A DNA stretch of 64,000 bases, taken from assembly GCA_033763135.1 (NCBI GenBank), contig JANRKY010000286.1, forward strand, positions 3,284-67,283, in the 5' to 3' direction. Shown piece by piece: positions 7,001 through 63,260 of this stretch (position 1 is the first letter of the stretch; the number at the start of each line of letters is the position of its first letter). Source of the DNA: Blastocatellia bacterium (GTDB lineage Bacteria; Acidobacteriota; Blastocatellia; RBC074). The notes beneath the pieces were generated by a model. It was not told where the DNA came from. It did no database searches and saw only the letters and a program-made list of their open reading frames with translations. A program made the position numbers and the translations under genes.

Positions 7001-7259
7001 CCGGCGTCCGCCAGAGCGGCGACTTTGCCGGGGGCGCGGCGACGAGCTCGTATTCGAATCGCTCGACCTCTCCAGCATGTCGTCGATGATGCGCATAGAG
7101 CGGCGGCGTGTCGGCCAGCAGCCGCTTTACGTTTTGCTTCAAACTCCCGATCACGCGCGAAGCCCTGCTTTCGACCCGAACCAGTTCGGGAAACAGCAGC
7201 GCCTGCGCCAGCAGGGTCTCGTTCTCAAGCTCGGTTATCAGGGTGATGATCGGCAGCAT
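4020..7259 (-). CDS. Atypical ClpA/ClpB-family double AAA+ ATPase. Unique ~200 aa N-domain, a D1 domain with a degenerate Walker B, an intact D2 domain, and an unassigned ~350 aa C-terminal extension.
   Basis: D1 Walker A is LLVGPSGVGKT. D1 Walker B reads ILYFGNLVELMEVG, where the ClpB consensus is ILFIDELHTMVGAG. D2 is FIGPTGVGKTEMAKALAEFLF, VRFDMSEY, VVLLDELEKA and GARPLKRAIERELVAPLS. The ORF runs to 7337 into the repeat island; the start is assumed to be the ATG at 7259. Confidence 0.75.
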   Translation of the reverse strand: MLPIITLITELENETLLAQALLFPELVRVESRASRVIGSLKQNVKRLLADTPPLYAHHRRHAGEVERFEYELVAAPPAKSPLWRTPVQLRFRGVRWMHGDAAAIAFLPTLGIEIVSTKAATMEALDRIIAPHIRAELARRGAGESLARLVWLQREIDLRIAADTVELDALTPRQIASRQNVFEEKKRSALAEAATDLTTRPLPVAYEMEAVVAQMAEALSGKSPRSVLLVGPSGVGKTAAVFELIRRRADFQFAHTPFYATNGSRLVAGMSGFGQWQERCRQLWQEAAQQRAILYFGNLVELMEVGKYVGNEQGIADFLRPFIARGDALVIAECTPEQAAHVDRANRKMLDIFQQIKVEEPTAERRRGVLLGYALADTVEKGNDRIHLEALERIDQLHQRYAGYSASPGRPVRFLRNLLQDHETERELQSEDVIRAFSKETGLPRLLLSEDERMEPESVREWFASRVVGQPDAVHLIVDLLATVKAGLTRPRKPIASLLFIGPTGVGKTEMAKALAEFLFQDRGRMVRFDMSEYADPLAVTRLVGGVFGKEGLLTAQVREQPFSVVLLDELEKADPSFFDLLLQVLGEGRLTDAMGRVADFSNSVVIMTSNLGAQSFQRGLVGFGEANATREAAARHFTNAVRQAMRPEMFNRIDRIVPFAPLDEATVLRIAEREIEKIRHRDGLRFRDVVLKIDDEVTRHLARRGYDPRYGARPLKRAIERELVAPLSVELCQVESNEVAEIAIRVEADHLSWHTRKVAESAAAQTQQQNNRPKLLALSCQLYRRRAQKLERSAALRNLQNEIFSLERLEKRVQTSKWKNPQDLAGLEALPQLKKLRQTIADFCADINQVEADLLLQFYGKKTIDLTQAGVRVDALSNRWNRILTDLYALRIKNPDVVTLAIYGESPRRLFELAELYHSYAKLHDRKISLCYFIHKAARPSKKKEPTVAALQRIPVETPAKFFAAPIDGVAAILLGIQFPQAFLKLELERGLHIFIAEKKQTRCLVETSQAAFDSYQPVLRKLGPTASYEKRRTYNEDLPSTEDHLLNRKLQRGSLTDVMLAELIDRTLMLQAEAMID

Positions 7260-7602
7260 CTGTAATTGAGAATTGACAATGGAGAATTGATAATTGGCAG
7301 CCGTCCGCCGCGGCGCCCGCCAACTATCAACCATCAATTGTCAAATTTCAATTCTCAACTATCAATTCTCGTCTCTTGCCGCATTTCTTCTCGCGGGTTA
7401 CATTGCCTTTCGCACGAGCAATACATCCCTTTACGAATCAGGCCGGCGGGAACTGGGAATTGAGAATTGAGAATTGAGGATTGAGAATTGATCGTCCGTC
7501 GACATCGATGTCGACGGCCAGGGCTCCACGATCAATCGTCAATTCTCAATTCTCAATTCTCAATTCTCAATTCTCAATTCCCCGGGCGTTTTCGAGGCAT
7601 TC
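7260..7602. repeat. AT-rich island of nested inverted repeats built from AATTGAGA/TCTCAATT octamers. It lies in the divergent promoter region between the AAA+ ATPase gene and the SDR gene.
   Basis: IR-A has imperfect arms at 7263-7297 and 7321-7370. IR-B has 37 nt arms at 7456-7492 and 7538-7574 with 2 mismatches. They flank a perfect 22 bp palindrome CCGTCGACATCGATGTCGACGG at 7496-7517. Confidence 0.85.
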
Positions 7603-8939: not shown

Positions 8940-9040
8940 GAGATTGCCACAGAGCCACGGAGGCACAGAGTCGAGAGCGGAGAAAATCCGGTTTTTCTGG
9001 CATTCTCCGCGCCTCTGTGGCTCTGTGGCCTGTCTCCCGT
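8940..9040. repeat. Long imperfect hairpin whose arms are tandem CCACAGAG octamers.
   Basis: The left arm GCCACAGAGCCACGGAGGCACAGAG... pairs with the right arm ...GCGCCTCTGTGGCTCTGTGGC. Intergenic, between the NIPSNAP gene and the TPP-enzyme gene. Confidence 0.6.
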
Positions 9041-10679: not shown

Positions 10680-11882
10680 ATGAACTTCGAATATACCGAC
10701 AAGGTCAAATACCTGCAGAAGAAGCTGTCGTCCTTCATGGACGAATACATCTACCCCAATGAAGCCGCGTATTACGAGCAGCTCAACACGGGCGAGCGCT
10801 GGAAGGTTCTGCCCGTCATCGAGGAGTTGAAGCCGAAGGCGAAGGCCGAGGGGTTGTGGAATCTTTTTCTTCCCGAAAGCGAGCACGGGGCGGGGCTGAC
10901 GAATCTGGAATATGCGCCGCTGTGCGAAATCATGGGGCGGGTTCCGTGGTCGGCCGAAGTCTTCAACTGTTCGGCGCCCGACACCGGAAACATGGAGGTG
11001 CTCGTTCGCTACGGCAGCGAAGAGAACAAGGCGCAGTGGCTGACGCCGCTGCTCAACGGCGAGATCCGCTCCTGTTACGCGATGACGGAGCCTGAGGTGG
11101 CCTCGTCGGACGCGACGAACATCTGTTCGAGCATCGTTCGCGACGGCGACTCGTACGTCATCAACGGCCGCAAGTGGTGGACGTCCGGCGCCGGCGATCC
11201 GCGATGCCGCATCGCGATCTTCATGGGAAAGACCGATGTCACCGCGCCGACCCACAAGCAGCAGTCGATGATCCTCGTGCCGATGGACGCGCCGGGCGTG
11301 AAGGTCATGCGCATGCTCAATGTTTTCGGCTATGACGATGCGCCGCACGGCCACGCGGAGGTCCTCTTCGAGAACGTCCGCGTCCCGGCCGGAAACATTC
11401 TTCTCGGAGAGGGGCGCGGTTTCGAGATCGCCCAGGGGCGGCTCGGTCCCGGCCGCATCCACCACTGCATGCGCACGATCGGACTCGCTGAACGCTCGCT
11501 CGAAGCGATGTGCAAACGTGTCAAGCATCGCGTCGCGTTCGGAAAGACGATCGCCGAGCAGGGGACCATCCGCGCGGACATCGCCGCCTGCCGCATCGAG
11601 ATCGAACAGGCGCGCCTGCTGACCCTCAAGGCCGCCTATATGATGGACACCGTCGGCAACAAGGTCGCCCGCGCCGAGATCGCCATGATCAAGGTCGTCG
11701 CTCCCAACATGGCGCTTCGCGTCATCGATCGCGCGCTTCAGGCGCACGGCGGCGGCGGCGTCAGCCAGGACTTCCATCTGGCCAGCGCCTGGTCGCATGC
11801 CCGCACCCTGCGCCTCGCCGACGGACCGGACGAGGTCCATCGCGAGACCATCGCCAAACTCGAATTGAAGAAGTACGAGTAG
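10680..11882 (+). CDS. Acyl-CoA dehydrogenase (ACAD10/11-like, FadE family).
   Basis: 400 aa. [13 protein letters not shown] and the C-terminal catalytic region are typical of the ACAD fold. AAGGAG RBS. Confidence 0.85.
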
Positions 11883-11965
11883 GGACAGGCCCCCGTGCCT
11901 GTCCTCGAATTGAAGAAGTACGAGCAGGGACAGGCCCCCGTGCCTGTCCCCGCGTCTCCCCGTCC
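11862..11965 (+). repeat. Tandem ~45 bp duplication of the ACAD gene's last codons, each copy followed by a GGACAGGC-CCCCGT-GCCTGTCC hairpin.
   Basis: CTCGAATTGAAGAAGTACGAG[T/C]AGGGACAGGCCCCCGTGCCTGTCC occurs twice in direct repeat. The first copy carries the TAG stop. Confidence 0.6.
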
Positions 11966-17777: not shown

Positions 17778-18246
17778 GATTTCTCGAACTCCGGACCAGC
17801 AGCACGATCAGCACGAGCGCCGCGATCATATCGAACGACATCAGCCCCACCGAGACCCGATGCAACATGTCAAAAGTGATCTTCGCCGGGTCGCTCGCCG
17901 GGAGCGCCGCGATCCCCTCGCCGAACTGCAGCCGGATTCCGTGCAGCCGGTTCGAGACATAAAATCGCGAGATTGCCATCGACGCGACCATCATCGCCAG
18001 CGCGATCAGCTCGAACAGAAAGCGCCGTCGGTTTTGCTCGCGCGAAAAGAGCAGCAGCACGATCAGCAGCAGCCCGAGCCCCATCCCGATGAATTCCGTC
18101 GCCGCCAGATTGCGCGAGACGACGTTGCCCGCCAGATGCTGCAACGGCAGAACCGAGAAGGCCACCGGCGCGACGATGAAGCTGAAATAGCACATCACCC
18201 CGAACCAGAACCCCAGAATCGCCACTCGTATCTTGTCGGATGTCAT
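17770..18246 (-). CDS. Small integral membrane protein (about 4 transmembrane helices, possibly DUF4149-like). Its start forms an ATGA overlap with the stop of the upstream DUF309 gene.
   Basis: The internal start MTSDKIRVAILGFWFGVMCYF is preferred. The longer ORF upstream is a GC-rich low-complexity artefact. Confidence 0.5.
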   Translation of the reverse strand: MTSDKIRVAILGFWFGVMCYFSFIVAPVAFSVLPLQHLAGNVVSRNLAATEFIGMGLGLLLIVLLLFSREQNRRRFLFELIALAMMVASMAISRFYVSNRLHGIRLQFGEGIAALPASDPAKITFDMLHRVSVGLMSFDMIAALVLIVLLVRSSRNHG

Positions 18247-18593
18247 AATCGATCCTGCAGGGCAATCCGCGGCCGCGTCGCGGCGCCGTCGAAATGGGCC
18301 TTCACCGCGTCCGCGAACGCCCGCGCGTCCAGCCCCATCATCGTCGCCGGAAGCGCCGCCAGCCGCGCCTGCGCGCGCGCATGCACGCTCGCCGCTCCCT
18401 TCGCGTTTCCTCGCTCCCGGTGATGCAGCGCCGCCGCGATCTGGATCATCGCATGCAGAAACTCCCGCTCCGCGCCCTCCGCGCGCAGCCAGATCGTCTC
18501 CCAGACCTCGTGGCATTCGAAATAGCGCCCCTCGTTAAAAAGCGCGATCCCCTCGGAATATTCGGCGGCGGCGTTCATCTTCCTGGAACTCAT
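18243..18593 (-). CDS. DUF309-family protein.
   Basis: EGIALFNEGRYFECHEVWETIW matches the DUF309 signature. 116 aa. Confidence 0.65.
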   Translation of the reverse strand: MSSRKMNAAAEYSEGIALFNEGRYFECHEVWETIWLRAEGAEREFLHAMIQIAAALHHRERGNAKGAASVHARAQARLAALPATMMGLDARAFADAVKAHFDGAATRPRIALQDRL

Positions 18594-18606
18594 GATTCAT
18601 GCCAGT

Positions 18607-18730
18607 CCCACAGGTCCCATAGGTCTCATAGGTCTCATAGGTCCCATAGGTCCCACAGGTCCCATAGGTCCCATAGGTCCCATAGGTCCCATAGGTCCCA
18701 TAGGTCCCATAGGTCCCATAGGTCCCATAG
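18607..18730. repeat. Tandem 9 bp repeat (CCCATAGGT)n of 13.8 units that fills the rhodanese-to-DUF309 spacer.
   Basis: The units are CCCACAGGT, CCCATAGGT, CTCATAGGT, CTCATAGGT, CCCATAGGT, CCCACAGGT, eight perfect CCCATAGGT units, and a final partial copy. Confidence 0.95.
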
Positions 18731-18736
18731 CACCCT

Positions 18737-19063
18737 TCAATACCGCGGCACCGACGGATCCACTCGCAGCGACCAGTCGTCGATCCCGCCGAGCAGATTC
18801 TTGAGGTTCGTGAATCCCTGCGCCGCCAGAAACTGGCAGGCGCGATCCGAACGCATGCCGTGATGACAGTGCAGCACGATCTCCTGTTCCTTGTCGCCCA
18901 GTTCCGCCGCCCATTGCATGATCCGGCCGAGCGGACGCAGCTCCGCGCCCGCGATCTGCGCGGCCTGAAATTCCGACGGCTCGCGCACATCGATCAGACG
19001 GATCGTTTCGCCCGCGTCGCGCCGCGCCTTCAACTCTTCCACGGTGATGGTTCCGTAGCTCAT
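18737..19063 (-). CDS. Single-domain rhodanese (sulfurtransferase, GlpE/PspE-like).
   Basis: Active-site loop LHCHHGMRS. 108 aa. Confidence 0.8.
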   Translation of the reverse strand: MSYGTITVEELKARRDAGETIRLIDVREPSEFQAAQIAGAELRPLGRIMQWAAELGDKEQEIVLHCHHGMRSDRACQFLAAQGFTNLKNLLGGIDDWSLRVDPSVPRY

Positions 19064-24983: not shown

Positions 24984-27668
24984 ATGCGATCGAAAATCGC
25001 GCTGGTTTTCTCATTGATTCTCGCACTGTTTCTCACGCTGTCGGTCTCGGCGCAGACGCCGGTCCTGGACCGGGAACTCTTCTTCGGCGATCCCGAGATC
25101 TCGGGCGCGCAGCTCTCGCCGGACGGGCAGTTCATCGCCTTCATCAAGCCGTATCAGGGGACGCGCAACATCTGGGTCAAGCGCACCGCGGAGCCCTTCA
25201 GCGCGGCCCGGCCCGTGACGGCCGATCCCAAGCGTCCGGTCCCGGCCTATTTCTGGAGCCGCGACGGAAAGTTCATTCTGTTTGTGCAGGACAAGGGAGG
25301 CGACGAAAACTACAACGTCTTCGCCGTGAATCCGGCCGAGAAGCCGGCCGCCGGCGAGGCCGTGCCGAAGGCGCGCAATCTGACCGACGCCAAGAGCGTT
25401 CGCGCGCAGATCTACGCCGTGCCGAAGAGCGACCCCGACCTGCTCTGGGTCGGCCTGAACGACCGCGACCCGGCCTGGCATGATCTCTACAAAGTGAAGA
25501 TCTCGTCCGGCGAGCGGACGCTCGTCCGCAAGAACACCGAGCGGATTCTGAGCTGGACCTTCGATCTCAAGGATCAGATCCGCCTCGCGACGCGCGCCAA
25601 CGACAAGGGCGAGACCGAGGTGCTTCGCGTCGAGGGCGCGGCCGAGGCGGCCACGTTCAAGATGATCTATTCGTGCACCGTGTTTGAGAGCTGCGGGCCG
25701 GTCCGCTTTCACAAGGACAACAAGCGCGTCTATTTCGTAACCAATCGCGGCGCCGACGCCGATCTGATCCGCCTGACGCTCTTCGATCCGGAGACGGGCC
25801 GGGAAGAGGCGGTCGAATCGGATCCGCTGAACCGGGTGGATCTCGGCGGCCCGATCTTCTCGGACGTCACCGATGAGTTGATCGGAACCTCGTACGACGA
25901 CGAGCGCCCGCGCGTCTATTGGAAGGACAAGGCCTTCGAGGCCGACTACAAGTGGCTGCAATCGAAGCTGCCCGGCCGGGAGGTCAATTTCGGCTCCTCG
26001 ACGACCGATGAGACGCTCTGGCTCATCTCGGCGTCGAGCGACCGGGAACCCGGTGAGTCGTGGCTCTTTGATCGCAAGTCAAAGAAGCTGACGCAGCAGT
26101 ATCGCGTCTTCGACAAGCTGCCGCGCGAGCATCTGGCCGAGATGAAATCGATCCGCTACAAATCGTCGGACGGGCTGGAGATCCCCGCCTATCTGACGCT
26201 GCCGAAGGGCGTCGAGGCGAAGAATCTGCCGACGATCATCTTCCCGCACGGCGGTCCGTGGGCGCGCGATGCGTGGGGTTTCGATGGGTACGCGCAGTTC
26301 CTGGCCAATCGGGGTTATGCGGTGCTCCAGCCCAACTTTCGAAGCTCGACGGGGTATGGCAAGAAGTTTCTCAATGCGGGAAATCAGCAGTGGGGCGAGA
26401 AGATGCAGGACGACCTGACGTGGGGCGTCAAGCATCTGGTCGCGCAGGGCATCGCCGATCCGAAGCGCGTCGGGATCATGGGCGGCTCCTACGGCGGCTA
26501 TGCGACGCTGGCGGGGGTGGCGTTCACGCCCGACGTCTATGCGGCCGGAGTCGCGATCGTCGCGCCGTCGAATCTGATCACGCTGCTCGAATCGATCCCG
26601 CCCTACTGGGAAGCGGGACGGAAGATCTTCCACGAGCGGATGGGCGATCCGACGACGACGGCCGGGAAGGCGCAGCTCGAGCGTCAGTCGCCGCTCAACG
26701 CCGCCAATCGAATCAAGACGCCGTTGATGGTCGTGCAGGGGGCGAACGATCCCCGCGTGAAGAAGTCGGAGTCGGATCAGATCGTCGTGGCGCTTCGCGA
26801 GCGGAATTTTCCGGTGGAGTACATCGTCGCGCCCGATGAGGGACATGGCTTTGCGCGCCCGGTGAACAACATGGCGATGTTCGCCGCGGCCGAGAAGTTT
26901 CTGGCCCGGCATCTCGGCGGCCGCTTTCAGGAGGGTGCGACGCCCGAGGTCTCGCAGCGCCTGAAGGAGATCACCGTCGACGTCAGGACGGTCGAGAAAC
27001 CGAAGCGGGTCGACGCCGCCGCGGTCGGCACGCCGAAGCCGGCCGTCGATCTGACGCCGGGAACCCAGAACTACAACGCGAAGATCGAACTGGGAGGACA
27101 GTCGATCGAGATGCAGATCACGGTCGAAATCAAGGAGGCCAACGGACTGTGGGAGGTTCGCGAGACCGCGAAGGGGGCCATGGGCGAGATCCTCGACGCC
27201 ACCTGGCTGGAGAAGGGAACCCTCACGCTTACGAAGCGCGCCATCAAACAGGGCCCCGTCACGATCGATCTGGCAATGAAGGGAAACAAGGCCGAGGGGA
27301 CAATGACCATGAACGGCCAGTCGAAACCCATCTCCGCCGAACTGAGCGGCGCGCTCTTTGCGGACGGCGCGGGCGCCTATGCCGTGATGGGAACGCTGCC
27401 CCTCGCCGAGGGCTACAGCGCAACCTTCCGCAACTTCGACCTGCAGAAACAGAAGATCGACCTGAAGCAGTTGAAGGTCGTCGGCATCGAGAAGGTGACG
27501 GTTCCGGCCGGCAGCTTCGAGGCCTACAAGGCGGAGATCGCCTCCCCCTCGGGAGACGGCGGAAAGACCACCATCTGGGTCGCTCGCGATTCCCGCAAGA
27601 TCGTCAGGATCGGCGCCGTCATGCCCCAGATGAATGGGGCCACGCTCACCAGCGAACTGCTGAAATAG
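24984..27668 (+). CDS. Secreted S9 family (prolyl oligopeptidase/dipeptidyl peptidase) serine peptidase with an extra ~230 aa C-terminal domain.
   Basis: Signal peptide. Beta-propeller N-terminal half. Catalytic GGSYGGY. Downstream Asp and His. Confidence 0.85.
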   Translation: MRSKIALVFSLILALFLTLSVSAQTPVLDRELFFGDPEISGAQLSPDGQFIAFIKPYQGTRNIWVKRTAEPFSAARPVTADPKRPVPAYFWSRDGKFILFVQDKGGDENYNVFAVNPAEKPAAGEAVPKARNLTDAKSVRAQIYAVPKSDPDLLWVGLNDRDPAWHDLYKVKISSGERTLVRKNTERILSWTFDLKDQIRLATRANDKGETEVLRVEGAAEAATFKMIYSCTVFESCGPVRFHKDNKRVYFVTNRGADADLIRLTLFDPETGREEAVESDPLNRVDLGGPIFSDVTDELIGTSYDDERPRVYWKDKAFEADYKWLQSKLPGREVNFGSSTTDETLWLISASSDREPGESWLFDRKSKKLTQQYRVFDKLPREHLAEMKSIRYKSSDGLEIPAYLTLPKGVEAKNLPTIIFPHGGPWARDAWGFDGYAQFLANRGYAVLQPNFRSSTGYGKKFLNAGNQQWGEKMQDDLTWGVKHLVAQGIADPKRVGIMGGSYGGYATLAGVAFTPDVYAAGVAIVAPSNLITLLESIPPYWEAGRKIFHERMGDPTTTAGKAQLERQSPLNAANRIKTPLMVVQGANDPRVKKSESDQIVVALRERNFPVEYIVAPDEGHGFARPVNNMAMFAAAEKFLARHLGGRFQEGATPEVSQRLKEITVDVRTVEKPKRVDAAAVGTPKPAVDLTPGTQNYNAKIELGGQSIEMQITVEIKEANGLWEVRETAKGAMGEILDATWLEKGTLTLTKRAIKQGPVTIDLAMKGNKAEGTMTMNGQSKPISAELSGALFADGAGAYAVMGTLPLAEGYSATFRNFDLQKQKIDLKQLKVVGIEKVTVPAGSFEAYKAEIASPSGDGGKTTIWVARDSRKIVRIGAVMPQMNGATLTSELLK

Positions 27669-27679
27669 CCCGCGGGCCG

Positions 27680-27860
27680 AACGCCTCACGCGAAGGCGCG
27701 AAGATGGGAAGAGCCCGGTCTTCTTCGCGCCTTCGTTTTCGATTCAGAAGCCATGCGAGCCGCGGGATCGAAAAAAGAACGGGAAGATCAAGAAAACTCG
27801 GGAATCGCTTTTCTTTGCGTCTTCGCGGCTTCGCGTGAGGCCCTCTTCTTGCTAACTTTC
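27680..27860. mobile_element. MITE-like ~180 bp element with terminal inverted repeats (copy 1 of 2).
   Basis: TIRs CCTCACGCGAAG...CTTCGCGTGAGG. Internal hairpin CGAAGGCGCGAAGA / TCTTCGCGCCTTCG. The 47598-47800 copy shares the ends, the internal hairpin and conserved internal blocks. Confidence 0.6.
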
Positions 27861-28295
27861 ACCGTATTCCCTGGAAAACGCGTCGAGGGCGCGCTGCAGC
27901 CGGGCGGCGTGCGAGCGTTCGGCGCGAACGAGCGTCTCGAACCATTCGGCGACCTCGTCGAGCCCCTCTTCCCGCGCGGTTCGCGCATAGGCCACATACA
28001 TCTCGGTGAACTCGAAGGTCTCGCCGGCAATCGAGGCGCGCAGGTTGGCGAGGGTGTCGCCGATCGGCTCGCCGGTGACGGGATCGCCGACTTCGCGGAG
28101 AAAGTCGAGATGGCCGTGGGCGTGGCCGGTCTCCCCCTCGGCGATGTCGCGAAACAGCCCGGCGGCGTCGGGATTTCCCTCGATGTCGGCCTGCCGCGCG
28201 AAATAGAGATAGCGTCGATTGGCCTGCGCCTCGCTGGCAAAGGCCTTTTTCAGGTTTTCGTGTGTCTGGCTGCCTTCTAGCTTTGGCATGGTCAT
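27852..28295 (-). CDS. Rubrerythrin-family ferritin-like diiron protein (no rubredoxin domain).
   Basis: [29 protein letters not shown] and a second E-x-x-H half-site. Confidence 0.75.
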
Positions 28296-28305
28296 TCCGG
28301 ATGTC

Positions 28306-28345
28306 CACCCATAAACGAAGACACAAAGGAGACGGCGTCTCCTTT
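28306..28345 (-). terminator. Near-perfect 19 bp inverted repeat followed by TTTAT on the minus strand. Terminator or operator between the iscA-like gene and the rubrerythrin gene.
   Basis: CGAAGACACAAAGGAGACG-g-CGTCTCCTTTGTGTCTTCG. Confidence 0.45.
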
Positions 28346-28381
28346 GTGTCTTCGGGGTATTCGTAAAATTGTCGGCCGAGA

Positions 28382-35149: not shown

Positions 35150-35164
35150 CGAATCCTCCTTGGG

Positions 35165-35249
35165 AAATCATCCACGAAGTTACACGAAGAAACGCGAAGG
35201 GAAGCCTCTTCTTCGTGCCTCTTCGTGTGGCGTTGTGGATGATTTTTCA
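35165..35249. repeat. CACGAAG-family palindromic hairpin element (copy 1 of 3).
   Basis: The arms AAATCATCCACGAAGTTACACGAAGAA... and ...CTTCGTGTGGCGTTGTGGATGATTT pair. Shares its core with the copies at 38044 and 39965. Confidence 0.6.
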
Positions 35250-38043: not shown

Positions 38044-38135
38044 AGTCGACTCCGCAGAAAATCATCCACGAAGTCACACGAAGAAACACGAAGAAGAGGA
38101 TTCCCTTCGTGCTTCTTCGTGTGACTGCGTGGATG
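38044..38135. repeat. CACGAAG-family palindromic hairpin element (copy 2 of 3), lying between convergent genes.
   Basis: The arms AAAATCATCCACGAAGTCACACGAAGAAACACGAAG and CTTCGTGCTTCTTCGTGTGACTGCGTGGATGATTTT pair. Confidence 0.65.
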
Positions 38136-38227
38136 ATTTTTTAATTGCTTCCGTACGTCGCCACGCGACGTGAACGACTCCATTCAAAAGGCAAATTGCA
38201 GCCGGCGCGCCGGCTGCGATTTGCCTT

Positions 38228-39964: not shown

Positions 39965-40060
39965 CTCCACAAAAGAACATCCACGAAGGCACGCGAAGAG
40001 CCACGAAGATAGGACTTATCTTCGTGGCTCTTCGTGTGCCTTCGTGGATGTTCTTTTATG
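39965..40060. repeat. CACGAAG-family palindromic hairpin element (copy 3 of 3). About a 43 bp stem, between convergent genes.
   Basis: CCACAAAAGAACATCCACGAAGGCACGCGAAGAGCCACGAAGATA ... TATCTTCGTGGCTCTTCGTGTGCCTTCGTGGATGTTCTTTTATGG. Confidence 0.65.
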
Positions 40061-40069
40061 GAGGTTCGG

Positions 40070-43548: not shown

Positions 43549-43597
43549 AGCGCGAAGCGTCTGGAAGGCGGCGGGCCTCCAGACGCTTCGCGAGGCG
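43549..43597. repeat. CGCGAAG-containing hairpin, related to the MITE termini.
   Basis: CGCGAAGCGTCTGGAGG ... CCTCCAGACGCTTCGCG. Confidence 0.5.
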
Positions 43598-45445: not shown

Positions 45446-45545
45446 GCGAAAAAAATGCTGAATGCTGAATGATGAACGATGAATCAAGAGGACGTCGCCG
45501 CTGATTCATCATTCATCATTCATCATTCAGCATTCATCGTTCAGC
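45446..45545. repeat. Long hairpin with tandem GAATGAT/GAATGCT heptamer arms. It abuts the mscS stop codon.
   Basis: GCTGAATGCTGAATGATGAACGATGAATCA ... TGATTCATCATTCATCATTCATCATTCAGCATTCATCGTTCAGC. Confidence 0.6.
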
Positions 45546-46635: not shown

Positions 46636-47550
46636 ATGAAGATGACGGCACGGATCATGGCGTTCAGCCTCCTCCTTCTGCTGCTGCCGGCGCGTCCGAT
46701 CAGCGGCGCGTTTCCGGGCGAGGGGCGATTGGCGGAGGCGCGGGCGGAGATGGAAGCGCGGATTCTCGAATCGAAGGCCGAGGTGGTGGGCGTGGCGATC
46801 GCGGATCTGGAGACGGGGCAGACGCTGCTGCTCAACGAACGCGTTCGCGTTCACGCGGCGAGCACGATGAAATTGCCGGTGATGATGGAGCTGTTTCGGC
46901 AGGCGAAGATGGAAAAACTCGGCCTTCGGCAGCCGCTCGAAGTCAAAAACTCGTTTCGGAGCATCATCGACGGCAGCGAGTATCGGCTGAATTCCCGCGA
47001 CGACAGCGATGCCGAAGTCTATCGATGGATTGGCCGCAGAATGCCGATGATCGATCTGATCGATCGCATGATCACGCGGAGCAGCAATCTCGCGACCAAT
47101 CTGCTGATCGAGATCGCCGAGCCCGCGCGCGTCAACCGGATGATGCGCGACCTCGGCGCAAACGAGATGGAGGTGCTGCGCGGCGTCGAGGACGCCAAGG
47201 CGTTTCAGGCGGGGAAGAACAACACGACGACGGCCTACGACCTGCTGCTGTTGTTGCGCGCGCTCGCGGAAGAACGGTTTCTCGACAAAAGCTCCTGCCG
47301 GGCGATGATTCGCATCCTCGCCGCGCAGAAGTTCAACGAGGGCATCCCCGCGGGACTGCCCGCCGGGACGAAGGTCGCGCACAAGACCGGCGAGATCACG
47401 CGGCATAATCACGACGCCGCCATCGTCTATCTGCCCGGCCGCAAACCGTACGTCATCGTCGTGCTGACAAAAGGCATCGAAGATCGCGGTCGCAGCAGCC
47501 GGCTGATTGCGGAGATCTCCCGCGCGGCGCATCGCCGCCTGGCGCGATAG
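46636..47550 (+). CDS. Class A beta-lactamase-like serine hydrolase with a signal peptide.
   Basis: S-x-x-K motif (ASTMKLP), SDN-type motif (SSN) and KTG motif. Confidence 0.8.
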
Positions 47551-47597
47551 CCGGAATCGTTTGGAGTTTCGCCTGACGGCCCATGGCATTAAGTTTA

Positions 47598-47800
47598 GCC
47601 TCACGCGAAGACGCGAAGGCGCGAAGCGGAAAGAGGCAGGTCTTCTTCGCGTCTTCGTTTTCGATTCAGAAACCCCGCGAGCCGCGCGGCCAGCGGGGCT
47701 GAAAAGAAAGAACGCGAAGAGGAAGAAAACTCGGAACTTACTCGTCTTTGCGTCTTCGCGGCTTCGCGTGAGGCCCTCTTTTTACAAACTTAATGCCCTT
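47598..47800. mobile_element. MITE-like element with terminal inverted repeats (copy 2 of 2).
   Basis: Shares the TIRs CCTCACGCGAAG/CTTCGCGTGAGG, the internal hairpin and conserved internal blocks with the 27680-27860 copy. Confidence 0.6.
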
Positions 47801-48048
47801 GGCCTGACGGCGGAACCCCAAACGATTGAAAGGAACATCTTCACAGATGGAGTGCGATACGGTACATTAGGGCGAGGCATTCGCCCCAGATGCCTGATCA
47901 TGCCCCTGAGCGCACAGCCCGAGAGTAGAGAAAGAACAGACAATTGACGTTCATTCACACCGATACATCATTTTCGTTTTGATCGAGTTGCGAGATTCGA
48001 TACCTTCGATACATTCGGCATTTTTGATACTGAGGATATGGCGAGCCA

Positions 48049-49893
48049 ATGATAGGGAGAGTCATCGGCAATTATCAGGTTACGAGCGAGTTGGCGCGCG
48101 GCGGAATGGGCGCGGTCTATCGCGGGCATCATTTGACGTTGCCGCGGGAGGTCGTGGTCAAGTCGATTCTGCTGGCGCCGTTTTCGCCGTCCGCGCAGGT
48201 GCATCTGAAGGCGCGTTTTCGCCGCGAAGCGTACATACAGTCGCAGCTCGACCATCCGAACATCGTTCGCGTCTATGAGTTCTTCACCGGCGAAGAGAAC
48301 TATTATCTGGTGATGGAGTATGTGGGCGGGATGACGCTGCGGGATCTGCTTGCGCGGCAGGGGGTGCCGACGCCGGCGCAGGCCGTCTATCTCTTCAAGC
48401 AGGCGCTCTCGGCGCTCGATTACGCGCACAATTTCAGTTATCTCGACGAGTCGGACAACGGGCATACGGGCGTCATTCACCGGGACATCAAGCCGGCGAA
48501 CATGCTGCTCGATACGAAGGGGAAGTTGAAGCTCACCGATTTCGGGATTGCGAAGGTGATCGGGGAGCAGGGGACGGGCGGCGGGATGACGCAGACCGGG
48601 TTCCAGCCCGGAACGGTCGAATATATGTCGCCGGAGCAGATTCGGGGCGGCGAGATCGACGAGCGGTCGGATCTCTACAGCCTGGGCGTGACGTTTTACG
48701 AGATGCTGACGGGGCAGTTGCCGTTTCCGCGATCGGCGACGGGGTCGGACTGGGAGGTTCGCAAGGGGCACATGGAGGTCGAGCCGCCGCCGTTGCAGGA
48801 GGTGCGCGCGACGATTCATCCGGCGCTGGCCTCGATCGTCACGCGGTCGCTGGCGAAAAATCCCCAGGACCGCTATCAGTCGGCGGCCGAATTTCTGGAG
48901 GCGCTGCGGATCTATGAGCAGCGGCACGGGTCGAATGGCGCGGCCAGGAGTGCGTCGGATCGGAGCACGCAGCAGCCGCTGATCGTCGCGACGAATGTCG
49001 ATCCGGATCTGACCCGGCCATCGGCGCGGCGGGCGCAGGCGATGCTGGAAGAGACGCCGACGATCGCCCTCGAAACGCCGCGGCCGCTGCCGGTCACCGT
49101 CTCGGCGGCCGTTCCGATTTTTCAGACGCACGCGGGGCCGCCGCCCTCGCGCCCGCTTGAACAAGCCGCGCCGCCCGGCGTCAGCAAGTTTCGGCTGGCC
49201 TTGGCGGGGCTGGGAATTCTTCTGGTGGGGACGGTTTCGGGGGCCTATCTCTTCTCGCAGGGGAGCCAGTCGCCGGTTCCCGCCGTGCAGATGGCCACGC
49301 CCGGGGCGGCCTCTCCGACGCCGACCGCGACCGTTGCCGCGATGGCGAAGAGTTCGCCGAAGCCCCGCCCCGCGGGCAGTCCGGGCGGGAGGCCGGGTGA
49401 GTTTTCGGCATTTCGGCAGGCGCGCCAGTTCGAGCAGCAGGAACTGTACGGCGACGCGATCGGCGTTCTGCAGCAATATCTGACCATCAATCCGACGGCG
49501 CCGGACAAGGTCGCCGTGGAGGCGCGGATTGGCGAGTTGCGCGCGGTCGATGCGGCGCTGGTCTCGGCCGACGCCGCCATGAACGCCGGCAAATACGAGC
49601 TTTCGGCGCGCGGGTATACCGCCGCCATCCGGTTGCGCCCGGAATCGAAGCGGGCCAGGACCGGGCTGGAGCAGTCTCTCTCCCGGATTCCCAATCTGCA
49701 GGCGCGACCGCGCGGAGGCGGATTTCCGCGTCCGGACGGTCCTGCCGGGATGGGCGGCCCACCGCGGGCTCCCCGGCCCAATCTCCAACCCGACCGGCCG
49801 CCGTTCGCCGATCCGGCCTTGCCACCGGATGGTCGTCCGCTCAACCGGCGGCGACTTCCCACGCCGACGCCGAAACCGGAACCTCAACCCTGA
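48049..49893 (+). CDS. Ser/Thr protein kinase (Hanks type) with a transmembrane helix and a Pro-rich/TPR-like C-terminal region.
   Basis: ELARGGMGAVYRG, HRDIKPANMLL, DFGIAK and SPEQ motifs. Confidence 0.85.
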   Translation: MIGRVIGNYQVTSELARGGMGAVYRGHHLTLPREVVVKSILLAPFSPSAQVHLKARFRREAYIQSQLDHPNIVRVYEFFTGEENYYLVMEYVGGMTLRDLLARQGVPTPAQAVYLFKQALSALDYAHNFSYLDESDNGHTGVIHRDIKPANMLLDTKGKLKLTDFGIAKVIGEQGTGGGMTQTGFQPGTVEYMSPEQIRGGEIDERSDLYSLGVTFYEMLTGQLPFPRSATGSDWEVRKGHMEVEPPPLQEVRATIHPALASIVTRSLAKNPQDRYQSAAEFLEALRIYEQRHGSNGAARSASDRSTQQPLIVATNVDPDLTRPSARRAQAMLEETPTIALETPRPLPVTVSAAVPIFQTHAGPPPSRPLEQAAPPGVSKFRLALAGLGILLVGTVSGAYLFSQGSQSPVPAVQMATPGAASPTPTATVAAMAKSSPKPRPAGSPGGRPGEFSAFRQARQFEQQELYGDAIGVLQQYLTINPTAPDKVAVEARIGELRAVDAALVSADAAMNAGKYELSARGYTAAIRLRPESKRARTGLEQSLSRIPNLQARPRGGGFPRPDGPAGMGGPPRAPRPNLQPDRPPFADPALPPDGRPLNRRRLPTPTPKPEPQP

Positions 49894-63104: not shown

Positions 63105-63200
63105 AGATTCGGACACAAGGGGAATGGACAGGATGAACAGGATGTTTCAGGATTCACAGGATTGTCCGTCAACGCCGAATCCTGTGAATCCTGAAACATC
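63105..63200. repeat. Perfect 38 bp inverted repeat with tandem CAGGAT(G/T) arm units.
   Basis: GGACAGGATGAACAGGATGTTTCAGGATTCACAGGATT - 14 nt loop - AATCCTGTGAATCCTGAAACATCCTGTTCATCCTGTCC. Confidence 0.75.
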
Positions 63201-63260
63201 CTGTTCATCCTGTCCATTTTTCACCGTCTGAATGTTGCCGTCTCTGATTCGGAACGGACG

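Follow-up and report, generated by a model that had tools for sequence, protein, structure and literature searches.

What occupies the gap between an S9 peptidase gene and a rubrerythrin gene, and again the gap between a beta-lactamase-like gene and a Ser/Thr protein kinase gene, in a Blastocatellia bacterium? Our evidence from the source genome is a stretch of 64,000 nt of contig JANRKY010000286.1 (assembly GCA_033763135.1), hereafter called the window. A first-pass annotation of the window had described two copies of a ~180-bp element with 12-bp terminal inverted repeats (TIRs) and had taken these ends as the hallmark of a MITE (miniature inverted-repeat transposable element) rather than of a simple terminator. 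The reading that we favor, with a probability of about 0.55, is that the element is a mobile hairpin cassette specific to the Blastocatellia lineage, a group of soil Acidobacteria, similar to the repetitive extragenic palindromes (REPs) and their compound forms, REPINs and bacterial interspersed mosaic elements (BIMEs), and that it was co-opted as a terminator or 3'-end stabiliser. It would be a MITE only in a loose sense.

Both copies were found, with boundaries slightly refined. The two cores are equal at 140 of 158 aligned positions (88.6%, or 79% with gaps counted), against a mean identity of 46% and a maximum of 54% for shuffled controls. They differ mainly by one entire 8-nt CGCGAAGN unit, the number of units in the array being two versus three, and by a central indel of ~10 nt. 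As first described, both open with GCCTCACGCGAAG(G/A)CGCGAAG, share the internal blocks GGTCTTCTTCGCG, CTTCGTTTTCGATTCAGAA, and GAAAACTCGG, and close with an identical block, 36 nt long (TCTTTGCGTCTTCGCGGCTTCGCGTGAGGCCCTCTT). The perfect inverted complementarity reported for the termini extends to 13 nt (GCCTCACGCGAAG / CTTCGCGTGAGGC), and within the window the exact terminal 12-mer is found only at these four ends. The inner hairpin said to be shared, CGAAGGCGCGAAGA / TCTTCGCGCCTTCG, is exact in copy 1, whereas copy 2 has CGAAGACGCGAAG / CTTCGCGTCTTCG instead. Seven CGCGAAGNCGCGAAG arrays were observed in the window where 0.31 were expected, and every one lies inside the two copies.

The inverted ends belong to a longer structure. 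Each core matches its own reverse complement at 83-86% identity and is therefore a long imperfect palindrome over its entire length, with terminal arms of 29-30 nt that are 87-90% complementary and composed of tandem CGCGAAGN units. As the palindrome spans the whole element, the "TIRs" are simply its foot. On the + strand the first half of the core consists of the tag GCCTCA, array 1 (CGCGAAGN)2-3, a loop, array 2 (NCTTCGCG)2, TTTTCGATTC, and a variable centre. The second half consists of a degenerate array 3, a loop, array 4 (NCTTYGCG)3, the tag TGAGGC, and a pyrimidine tail, YCTCTTYY, which is present in six of the six full copies known to us from two genomes. The four word arrays of a core, alternately (CGCGAAGN)n and (NCTTCGCG)n, can pair either as 1+2 and 3+4 to give local hairpins or as 1+4 and 2+3 to give a single long hairpin. 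The predicted RNA fold of positions 27669-27860 on the + strand is a single long stem (-89.7 kcal/mol, z -4.65).

In the wider family the core is often enclosed by a second inverted repeat of ~25-42 nt, as it is in copy 2. The outer arm (..CAGGCCMATGGCATTAAGTTT) also borders the core in four loci retrieved from other sources (L057, L077, L100, and L023), whereas copy 1 and locus L029 consist of the core only. A solo outer hairpin, which would have suggested that the core had entered a pre-existing hairpin, was looked for, but each occurrence of the outer arm that was found is joined to a core. Because the outer arm is found only with the core, the composite behaves as a single unit.

Table 1 Coordinates of the two copies, their parts, and the neighboring genes in the window.
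Feature	Position	Strand	Remarks
Copy 1 core element	27683..27841	+	159-nt quasi-palindrome, GCCTCAC...GTGAGGC
Copy 1 left terminal arm	27683..27712	+	30 nt, 87% complementary to 27812-27841
Copy 1 tag GCCTCA plus array CGCGAAGG CGCGAAGA	array 27689-27704	+	inside left arm
Copy 1 left module	27691..27745	+	stem 27691-27704 / 27722-27735, 14 bp perfect, ~15 bp in fold; then TTTTCGATTC (27736-27745)
Copy 1 right terminal arm	27812..27841	+	TCTTTGCG TCTTCGCG GCTTCGCG TGAGGC
Copy 1 pyrimidine tail CCTCTTCTTG	27842..27851	+	runs from core to ~27851; adjoins rubrerythrin stop codon (27852-27854, - strand)
Copy 2 composite (core plus outer inverted repeat)	47555..47827	+	
Copy 2 outer inverted repeat	47555-47596 / 47786-47827		42-nt arms, 81%
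Copy 2 core element	47598..47774	+	177 nt
Copy 2 left module	47606..47667	+	stem 47606-47618 / 47645-47657, 13 bp perfect; then TTTTCGATTC (47658-47667)
Copy 2 right terminal arm plus pyrimidine tail CCTCTTTTTAC	47746..47785	+	arm 47746-47774, tail 47775-47785
S9 (prolyl oligopeptidase family) peptidase, upstream of copy 1	24984..27668	+	database protein P0001 100% identical; Pfam Peptidase_S9 on ortholog
Rubrerythrin, convergent on copy 1	27852..28289	-	from translation; syntenic ortholog in L160 with Pfam Rubrerythrin/Ferritin; start codon uncertain
Class A beta-lactamase-like serine hydrolase, upstream of copy 2	46636..47550	+	P0121 100% identical, PF13354; start taken from the 304-aa database protein
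Promoter-like site TTCACA-17-TACATT	47840-47868		before kinase gene; conserved in L170
Ser/Thr protein kinase, downstream of copy 2	48049..49893	+	76% identity to L170 kinase (Pfam Pkinase)

A genome scan (one genome per species) with the 21-mer GCCTCACGCGAAGNCGCGAAG showed that the element is not confined to these two sites. At least nine loci or contigs of another Blastocatellia metagenome-assembled genome (MAG), DALYLB01, carry it, and full copies with the same module order are found in four of them (L029, L057, L077, and L100). Five DALYLB01 contigs start or stop within the element, as expected for a multi-copy repeat. The lineage thus holds more copies than the two that the first-pass annotation had known, a finding which removes one of its own grounds for doubt. 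The six full copies share one architecture. Conservation is highest at the ends, in the descending arm of the left hairpin, and in its T tract, and between the two genomes the ends are 90-96% and the interiors 70-76% identical. A family profile built from the six copies scored them at 150-185 bits in the forward and 58-88 bits in the reverse orientation (by nhmmer, 149.5 versus 60.7 bits for copy 1 and 175.0 versus 82.5 bits for copy 2), indicating that the family has polarity. The profile found no further full copies in the window or in ~45 kb of contigs of close relatives. A metagenome scan with a right-junction pattern gave 57 loci, none of the Blastocatellia family and most of them Methanoculleus-type and planctomycete-type elements. 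The DALYLB01 copies lie in varied contexts, 3' of genes, 5' of genes, and in one divergent region. These data support the view of an element that is small and non-coding, has inverted ends, and exists in multiple copies in varied genomic contexts. Literature searches by sequence string found no relevant paper with these sequences in the library searched, and the family of dispersed nested-hairpin repeats in Blastocatellia is both real and previously undescribed.

The history of the two sites was read from orthologous junctions. At the copy 1 site, locus L160 of a relative (S9 peptidase 89% identical in amino acid sequence) has syntenic S9 peptidase, rubrerythrin, IscA-like, and Mrp/ParA-like genes, but its S9 peptidase-rubrerythrin junction is only 93 nt, lacks the element, and contains a simple hairpin, CCGGAACGGCCGGCGCGC-tcatgt-GCGCGCCGGCCGTTCCGG. 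At the copy 2 site, the stop codon in L170 and L171 (beta-lactamase-like protein 78% identical) is followed by 62 nt of unrelated sequence, without the element. Homology of L170 with the window restarts at ~47828, the exact outer edge of the composite, and continues through the promoter-like site into the kinase gene. The small hairpins of the relatives at both sites are unrelated to the element. Its absence from both orthologous sites in close relatives makes the element a gained and dispersed one, and the comparison shows that it was gained at both window loci after the split from these relatives. Of the comparison of empty and filled sites proposed by the first-pass annotation, absence in close relatives was borne out, but the entire intergenic segment had been replaced and a clean insertion was not seen. 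In a closer relative (87% identity), 13 of 13 independent contigs end 32 nt after the stop codon, inside the match to the left outer arm. This suggests that the element is present at the copy 2 site of that genome and is repeated in it.

The same comparisons bear on the view that nothing moved, namely that terminators arose independently in place by slippage plus palindrome correction and converged on the same words. Word-array hairpins of many different words are common in the window and elsewhere, and the relatives too have hairpins at both junctions. However, the 88.6% identity of the two copies runs through loops, centre, and tail, and among the shared non-array blocks are TTTTCGATTCAGAA, GAAAACTCGG, and the outer arm. 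Moreover, the multi-module architecture, including the outer arm and the AAGTTTA/GCCTCAC junction, recurs at unrelated loci of another genome, and assemblies break in the element. Convergence in place, already disfavored, is thus very improbable.

The position and makeup of the left half of the core suggest what a gained copy may do. In both copies a left module consisting of a G+C-rich stem-loop followed by a U tract lies downstream of the stop codon of a gene on the same strand, beginning 23 nt past the S9 peptidase stop (copy 1) and 56 nt past the beta-lactamase-like stop (copy 2), as in an intrinsic terminator. The left half of copy 1 folds into a ~15-bp G+C-rich stem followed by UUUUCGAUUC (UUUUCG) at -37.1 kcal/mol (z -2.4), whereas shuffled sequences fold at least as well as the mirror half on the opposite strand (z +1.0 and +0.2). 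The stem carries a compensatory change, a spacer pair that is G-C in copy 1 and A-T in copy 2, and its descending arm plus the T tract form the best conserved internal block of the family. From these features we infer that the left module probably acts as a terminator and/or 3'-end stabiliser at both window loci. It would serve the upstream co-oriented gene as its intrinsic terminator, as its 3'-end stabiliser, or as both, and the full-length stem of 60-68 pairs could form in transcripts of either strand. At the convergent copy 1 junction the full stem would be open to the opposing transcript. The statement that the element is "not a simple terminator" therefore stands in part. The element is a larger, multi-module one, but its left module is terminator-like and takes the place of the small hairpins of the relatives. 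Among 174 arrays from many taxa, the upstream gene was co-oriented in 79 versus 49 cases, and the intergenic class comprised 26 convergent, 44 tandem, and 10 divergent sites with convergent sites over-represented (both counts rest on rough gene calls).

Alternatively, the element could be a structured RNA, either a cis-regulatory element of an untranslated region (UTR) or a small RNA, which acts as a folded transcript (as a processing site or in the control of stability or translation) and not through termination. The strong + strand fold (-89.7 kcal/mol, z -4.65), the polarity of the family, its conserved pyrimidine tail, and the location of the L057 and L100 copies between promoter-like sequence and start codon are all in keeping with such a role. 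However, no Rfam family was matched at gathering or permissive thresholds. Across the whole window there were zero matches at the gathering thresholds, and the permissive mode gave only chance-level hairpin matches. In addition, covariation is essentially absent (its term is +0.75 on a total consensus energy of -54.83 kcal/mol), most copies fold nearly equally well on either strand, and the loops and centre diverge freely. We consider an RNA acting in this manner rather unlikely.

How could a hairpin cassette of this kind have spread? The proposal of the first-pass annotation was in effect a classical MITE, a deletion derivative of an insertion sequence (IS) with a DDE transposase, moved in trans through its TIRs by cut-and-paste with target-site duplication (TSD). 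Some features of the element agree with this. The termini are inverted (13 nt perfect, 29-30 nt at 87-90%, though the entire element is palindromic), and the element is small, non-coding, and dispersed, with two copies in the window, at least nine DALYLB01 loci, and absence at the orthologous sites of relatives. The ends are also conserved above the interior (90-96% versus 70-76% between genomes). However, no consistent fixed-length TSD was found at the edges of six cores and four composites, even with ±4-8 nt of slack, the only duplications being inconsistent coincidences of 3-4 nt. The absence of a TSD points away from a DDE cut-and-paste transposase. Likewise, neither the window nor 157 related loci (~1 Mb), 72,556 plasmids, or 2.9 million viral contigs yielded an IS or a transposase whose ends match, and there was no transposase near any of ~170 arrays. 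When the 2,037 open reading frames near arrays in the 157 loci were clustered, only housekeeping families appeared (ABC transporter, kinase, TonB-dependent receptor, and similar). The array pattern itself was absent from the 2.9 million viral contigs, the copy 2 composite (47555-47827) had one match among the plasmids, at an unannotated intergenic site with nothing IS-like about it, and the copy 2 core (47598-47774) had no match in E. coli genomes. Finally, the supposed TIR occurs verbatim, often solo, in unrelated elements of many phyla, which is at odds with prokaryotic MITEs being taxon-specific, as reported (PMC11602168). The 12-bp ends are not a transposon hallmark here but the foot of a full-length palindrome, a foot built from a tagged octamer array. 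The small, dispersed, non-coding copies with inverted ends remain from the MITE interpretation, but neither a consistent TSD nor, in the data searched, a matching transposase was found with them, and we judge a classical MITE improbable.

For the REP-like hairpin cassette that we favor, a different route is supposed, and this is the least secure part of the explanation. The element would spread without TSD, through an HUH enzyme resembling the REP-associated tyrosine transposase (RAYT) that acts in trans on the hairpin or on single-stranded DNA, or by recombinational replacement of existing hairpins. A tblastn search of the window and the loci for Y1 transposases gave no match, but the probes were approximate and the search was weak. 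An inverted array pair 3.4 kb apart in locus L060 was considered as an autonomous element and rejected, as it encloses an ordinary sensor kinase. The likeness of CTCACG(C/T)(G/T)AAG to the inner Tn3 inverted repeat and a possible relation to integron attC core sites were also dropped as coincidental or unsupported.

The ends of the element have a much wider distribution than the element itself. The sequence (C)TCA(CGCGAAGN)2-4 was found verbatim in at least 12 bacterial phyla and in methanogens, within unrelated lineage-specific elements. Identical 21-30-mers occur in at least 12 bacterial phyla, in Methanoculleus, and in Methanothrix, cultured isolates included. Among the scan matches listed, the bacteria are Acidobacteriota (Blastocatellia, Vicinamibacterales, Holophagae, Terriglobia), Verrucomicrobiota, Lentisphaerota, Planctomycetota, several classes of Pseudomonadota, Desulfobacterota, Chloroflexota, Armatimonadota, Gemmatimonadota, Binatia, Bacteroidota, and Hydrogenedentota, and the archaea are Methanoculleus and Methanothrix/Methanosaeta. 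The isolates listed are Oligosphaera ethanolica DSM 24202, Methanoculleus formosensis Afa-1, Methanoculleus sp. MH98A, and Asticcacaulis sp. AC402. Note that taxa were taken from record titles and that MAG labels are fallible, an example being L094, labeled "Alphaproteobacteria" with a Methanoculleus-type element. The arrays consist of 2-4 units of CGCGAAG plus a spacer of 1-3 nt. In the retrieved loci CA precedes 273 of 297 CGCGAAG arrays, with CTCA in most, and the same held for ~117 arrays that lay outside the selection imposed by the search pattern. Sister words such as CACGAAG, CACAGAG, CGCAAAG, and CGCGGAG likewise form arrays, and these have either this CTCA tag or a (G/T)AAC one. Only 28 of 137 arrays had a strict inverted partner within 280 nt. 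When the arrays were masked, the flanks clustered within lineages only, giving a Methanoculleus-type group of 23 loci, a planctomycete group of 11, a proteobacterial group of 10, a Lentisphaerae group of 7, and the Blastocatellia group of 5. The array-plus-tag module has thus been reused, or has evolved anew, in many lineage-specific elements, and it cannot serve to mark a single transposon.

Three of these other settings were seen in some detail. In Lentisphaerae (L026 2370-2660 and L081 3470-3850, from Oligosphaera ethanolica and a Lentisphaeria MAG), a GCCTCA(CGCGAAGG)3 array starts a unit of ~127-134 nt, with CGCAGATTA-type words and a GC hairpin coming after it. At least three such units stand head to tail, and an inverted CGCGAAG partner is absent. 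The Methanoculleus-type element of anaerobic-digester metagenomes (L104, L108, L118, L127, L143, L144, L151, and 16 more loci) has outward-facing arrays (CTTCGCGTGAG ... CTCACGCGAAG) around ATTTCAGCACGGGGGGATAGAG, then ...CTGTCAGAATTAGCGAAGTACTG. The plasmid search recovered L173 1490-1660, an unannotated hairpin in the ribF-ileS gap of plasmid pMC4 of Sphingopyxis indica MC4, a cultured alphaproteobacterium. It has the form TTCA(CGCGAAGN)3 ... (NCTTCGCG)3TGAA with a pyrimidine-rich tail and is preceded by a CGCAAAG/CGCAGAG/CACGGAA array.

Given this distribution, the array rather than the hairpin might be primary. One such view is that (C)TCA(CGCGAAGN)n constitutes iterated DNA or RNA sites for a widespread host factor, such as a nucleoid protein, gyrase (as for REP and BIME), or a cold-shock/OB-fold protein that takes one heptamer each, with hairpin and dispersal secondary. 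The identical tagged arrays with unrelated flanks in at least 12 bacterial phyla and methanogens, the many solo arrays, the use of the same CTCA or (G/T)AAC tags by other CRCRRAG words, and the variation in unit number between copies (two versus three) are compatible with this, and CspB on heptamer repeats has been discussed as a precedent (PMC4679880). However, a candidate protein was not identified, the 8-nt period does not place sites on the same face of B-DNA, and in the Blastocatellia family the arrays always come as complementary pairs that form stems. A protein-binding origin is thus unlikely. A broader view is that the real unit is a cross-domain superfamily of REP-like modules, (C)TCA or (G/T)AAC plus (CRCRRAG + 1-3 nt)2-4 (here GCCTCA(CGCGAAGN)2-4). 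The machinery that recognises them, whether conserved or spread horizontally, could for example be an HUH-type enzyme or an RNA- or DNA-binding protein, and lineages would build their own hairpins, mosaics, and mobile cassettes around them. We regard this as possible, though on the unlikely side.

In logic, the closest known systems are REP, REPIN, and BIME. These are extragenic palindromes, inverted doublets, and mosaics moved by RAYT, an IS200/IS605-like Y1 HUH transposase. Their proposed roles are as terminators, mRNA stabilisers, and 3'-UTR regulators (PMC3116915, PMC3733652, bioRxiv 10.64898/2026.03.23.713779). Like them, the Blastocatellia element is extragenic, hairpin-forming, multi-copy, and without TSD. 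It also shares their enrichment at 3' ends and in convergent regions, the short tag at the hairpin foot, and the inverted-doublet and nested or mosaic layout. In contrast to REP, its tag is (G)CCTCA/TGAGG (ends GCCTCA...TGAGGC) instead of the defining GTAG or CGTC, its arms are tandem arrays of 8-nt words whereas REP is a unique 20-40 nt palindrome, and its unit is far longer (160-270 nt). Moreover, its arm sequence is common to many phyla whereas REP sequences are species-specific, and a RAYT gene was not found in the window or loci with the approximate Y1 probes of that weak search.

Other families resemble the element in part. Correia/NEMIS of Neisseria, ERIC/IRU, RUP, and BOX are likewise 100-300 bp, non-coding, and intergenic with terminal inverted repeats. 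Hairpin MITEs of the Correia and ERIC type are co-transcribed with their neighbors, may supply terminators or processing sites, and vary in presence between strains, a further likeness. A classical MITE comes with a TSD (TA for Correia, for example) and with a parent IS family that can be recognised, whereas in the data searched the element has neither a consistent TSD nor a parent IS. In the census of prokaryotic MITEs the families are taxon-specific (PMC11602168), whereas the terminal module of the element spans taxa. The TAACTGA direct repeats are common to Beggiatoaceae, Cyanobacteria, and Bacteroidetes, and horizontal spread has been suggested for them without a mechanism (PMC4679880). 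Like these and the cyanobacterial short tandemly repeated repetitive (STRR) sequences, the arrays of the element are intergenic, consist of 2-6 tandem units of a 7-8 nt word in variable number, and use the same word in distant lineages. The STRR and TAACTGA arrays, however, are mostly direct repeats upstream of start codons, whereas those of the element are inverted complementary sets that form long stems, are tagged, have a period of 8 rather than 7, and lie within a larger dispersed element. Intrinsic terminators share with the left module the G+C-rich stem and U tract after a stop codon, where relatives have simple hairpins, but the element as a whole is 160-270 nt and multi-copy, has conserved non-stem blocks and a long loop, and in some copies lies upstream of genes.

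Several observations weigh against the element being a mobile, terminator-bearing cassette. At the orthologous sites the whole intergenic segment has been replaced, in place of a clean insertion with an intact empty site, and a mobilising enzyme was not found in the window, related loci, plasmids, or viral contigs searched. The two window copies diverge by 11%, so that recent activity is not indicated here. The terminator role would follow from sequence features, and here the loop of the left hairpin is long (17-26 nt) and the U tract short (UUUU). When scanned for simple terminators, the element gave no more than a small alternative hairpin at its right end, a kind of match that occurs at chance frequency. 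Some family copies are found upstream of genes and one in a divergent region (L100, L079, and L092), and thus a terminator role cannot explain everything. The orientation bias relative to neighboring genes (~8 to 3) is not significant. The strand asymmetry of the RNA is weak, the + strand being the more stable in five of the six copies but often marginally so. RNAalifold returns the long hairpin with covariation nearly absent because the arrays are invariant.

The settings given for the two copies by the first-pass annotation were correct. Copy 1 lies between the convergent S9 peptidase and rubrerythrin genes and copy 2 between the beta-lactamase-like and Ser/Thr kinase genes, the latter region being tandem and not convergent as the kinase gene is on the + strand. 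P0001, the database match to the S9 peptidase, is a prolyl oligopeptidase family serine peptidase named from a Blastocatellia MAG. By its flanking proteins the source, too, is a MAG of Blastocatellia (Acidobacteriota). The window rubrerythrin is four codons longer at its C-terminus (…FSREYGES*, positions 27852-27866) than that of the 89% relative L160 (…LPRE*), and the extra codons plus the stop are the sequence that directly adjoins the element. As they abut it, gain of the element or replacement by it seems to have remodelled the rubrerythrin C-terminus. Just upstream of the rubrerythrin gene is a palindrome (28316-28354) at which two independent metagenome contigs 98.6% identical to the window (L001 and L002) terminate. 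These contigs of 1-2 kb were recovered by an exact-protein search with the IscA-like gene.

The window contains further word-array hairpins and repeats. The hairpin at 43549-43597, for which a common origin with the element had been suggested, is an ordinary one with just a single CGCGAAG in each arm, and the suggestion rested on this one shared 7-mer. The ~90-nt hairpins of CACGAAG words (35156-35247, 38050-38141, and 39965-40063) have a period of ~10 and are 73-79% identical to one another. An A run and a T run border them, as in bidirectional terminators, and they belong to the same word-array class, with the tag CATC and not CTCA. Adjacent hairpins of the heptamers GAATTGA / TCAATTC (7250-7382 and 7444-7582), with at most ~6 units per arm, are made of AT-rich words in a 63% G+C genome, and GAATTGA is one base off the TAATTGA variant and two off the TAACTGA repeat (PMC4679880). 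Other word-array hairpins are found at 45454-45541 (GAATGCT/GAATGAT) and 8946-9029 (CACAGAG/CACGGAG), and ATGAATG arrays are also found in L077 and TGATGAA arrays in L163. At 63123-63218 is a hairpin with 41-nt perfectly complementary arms of CAGGATG / CAGGATT words, and the same array is found in the Blastocatellia MAG locus L077. The word CAGGATG equals the CsrB repeat CAGGAUG. A CsrB-like reading of this hairpin, which had no Rfam match, was dropped as coincidental or unsupported, as were DnaA-box-like ATCCACA sequences in neighboring arrays. Two repeats are not of the inverted array type. At 18578-18766 a 9-mer (GGTCCCATA, + strand) without inverted partner is repeated in tandem about 15 times, between a rhodanese-like gene (18737-19063, -) and the next - strand gene (18243-18593), and at 11859-11948 a 45-nt unit that contains a small hairpin, GGGACAGGCCCCCGTGCCTGTC, is tandemly duplicated (98% identical).

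The element accounts for two intergenic regions of this genome, and the Blastocatellia family to which it belongs is a REP/MITE-like, terminator-bearing repeat. It indicates that in Blastocatellia a dispersed repeat supplies terminator-like hairpins as exchangeable parts, which is relevant to the annotation of operons and 3' ends, and it matters for MAG assembly because contigs break in it. The window is also a compact example of intergenic hairpins with arms of tandem 7-10 nt words. The most notable lead is the unexplained cross-domain distribution of the tagged ends, one tagged word array being found verbatim across bacterial phyla and methanogenic archaea. The nearest precedent, the TAACTGA repeats (PMC4679880), is likewise unexplained. 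If a common mechanism of recognition or biogenesis does underlie these arrays, it would be directly testable in the cultivable organisms that carry them.

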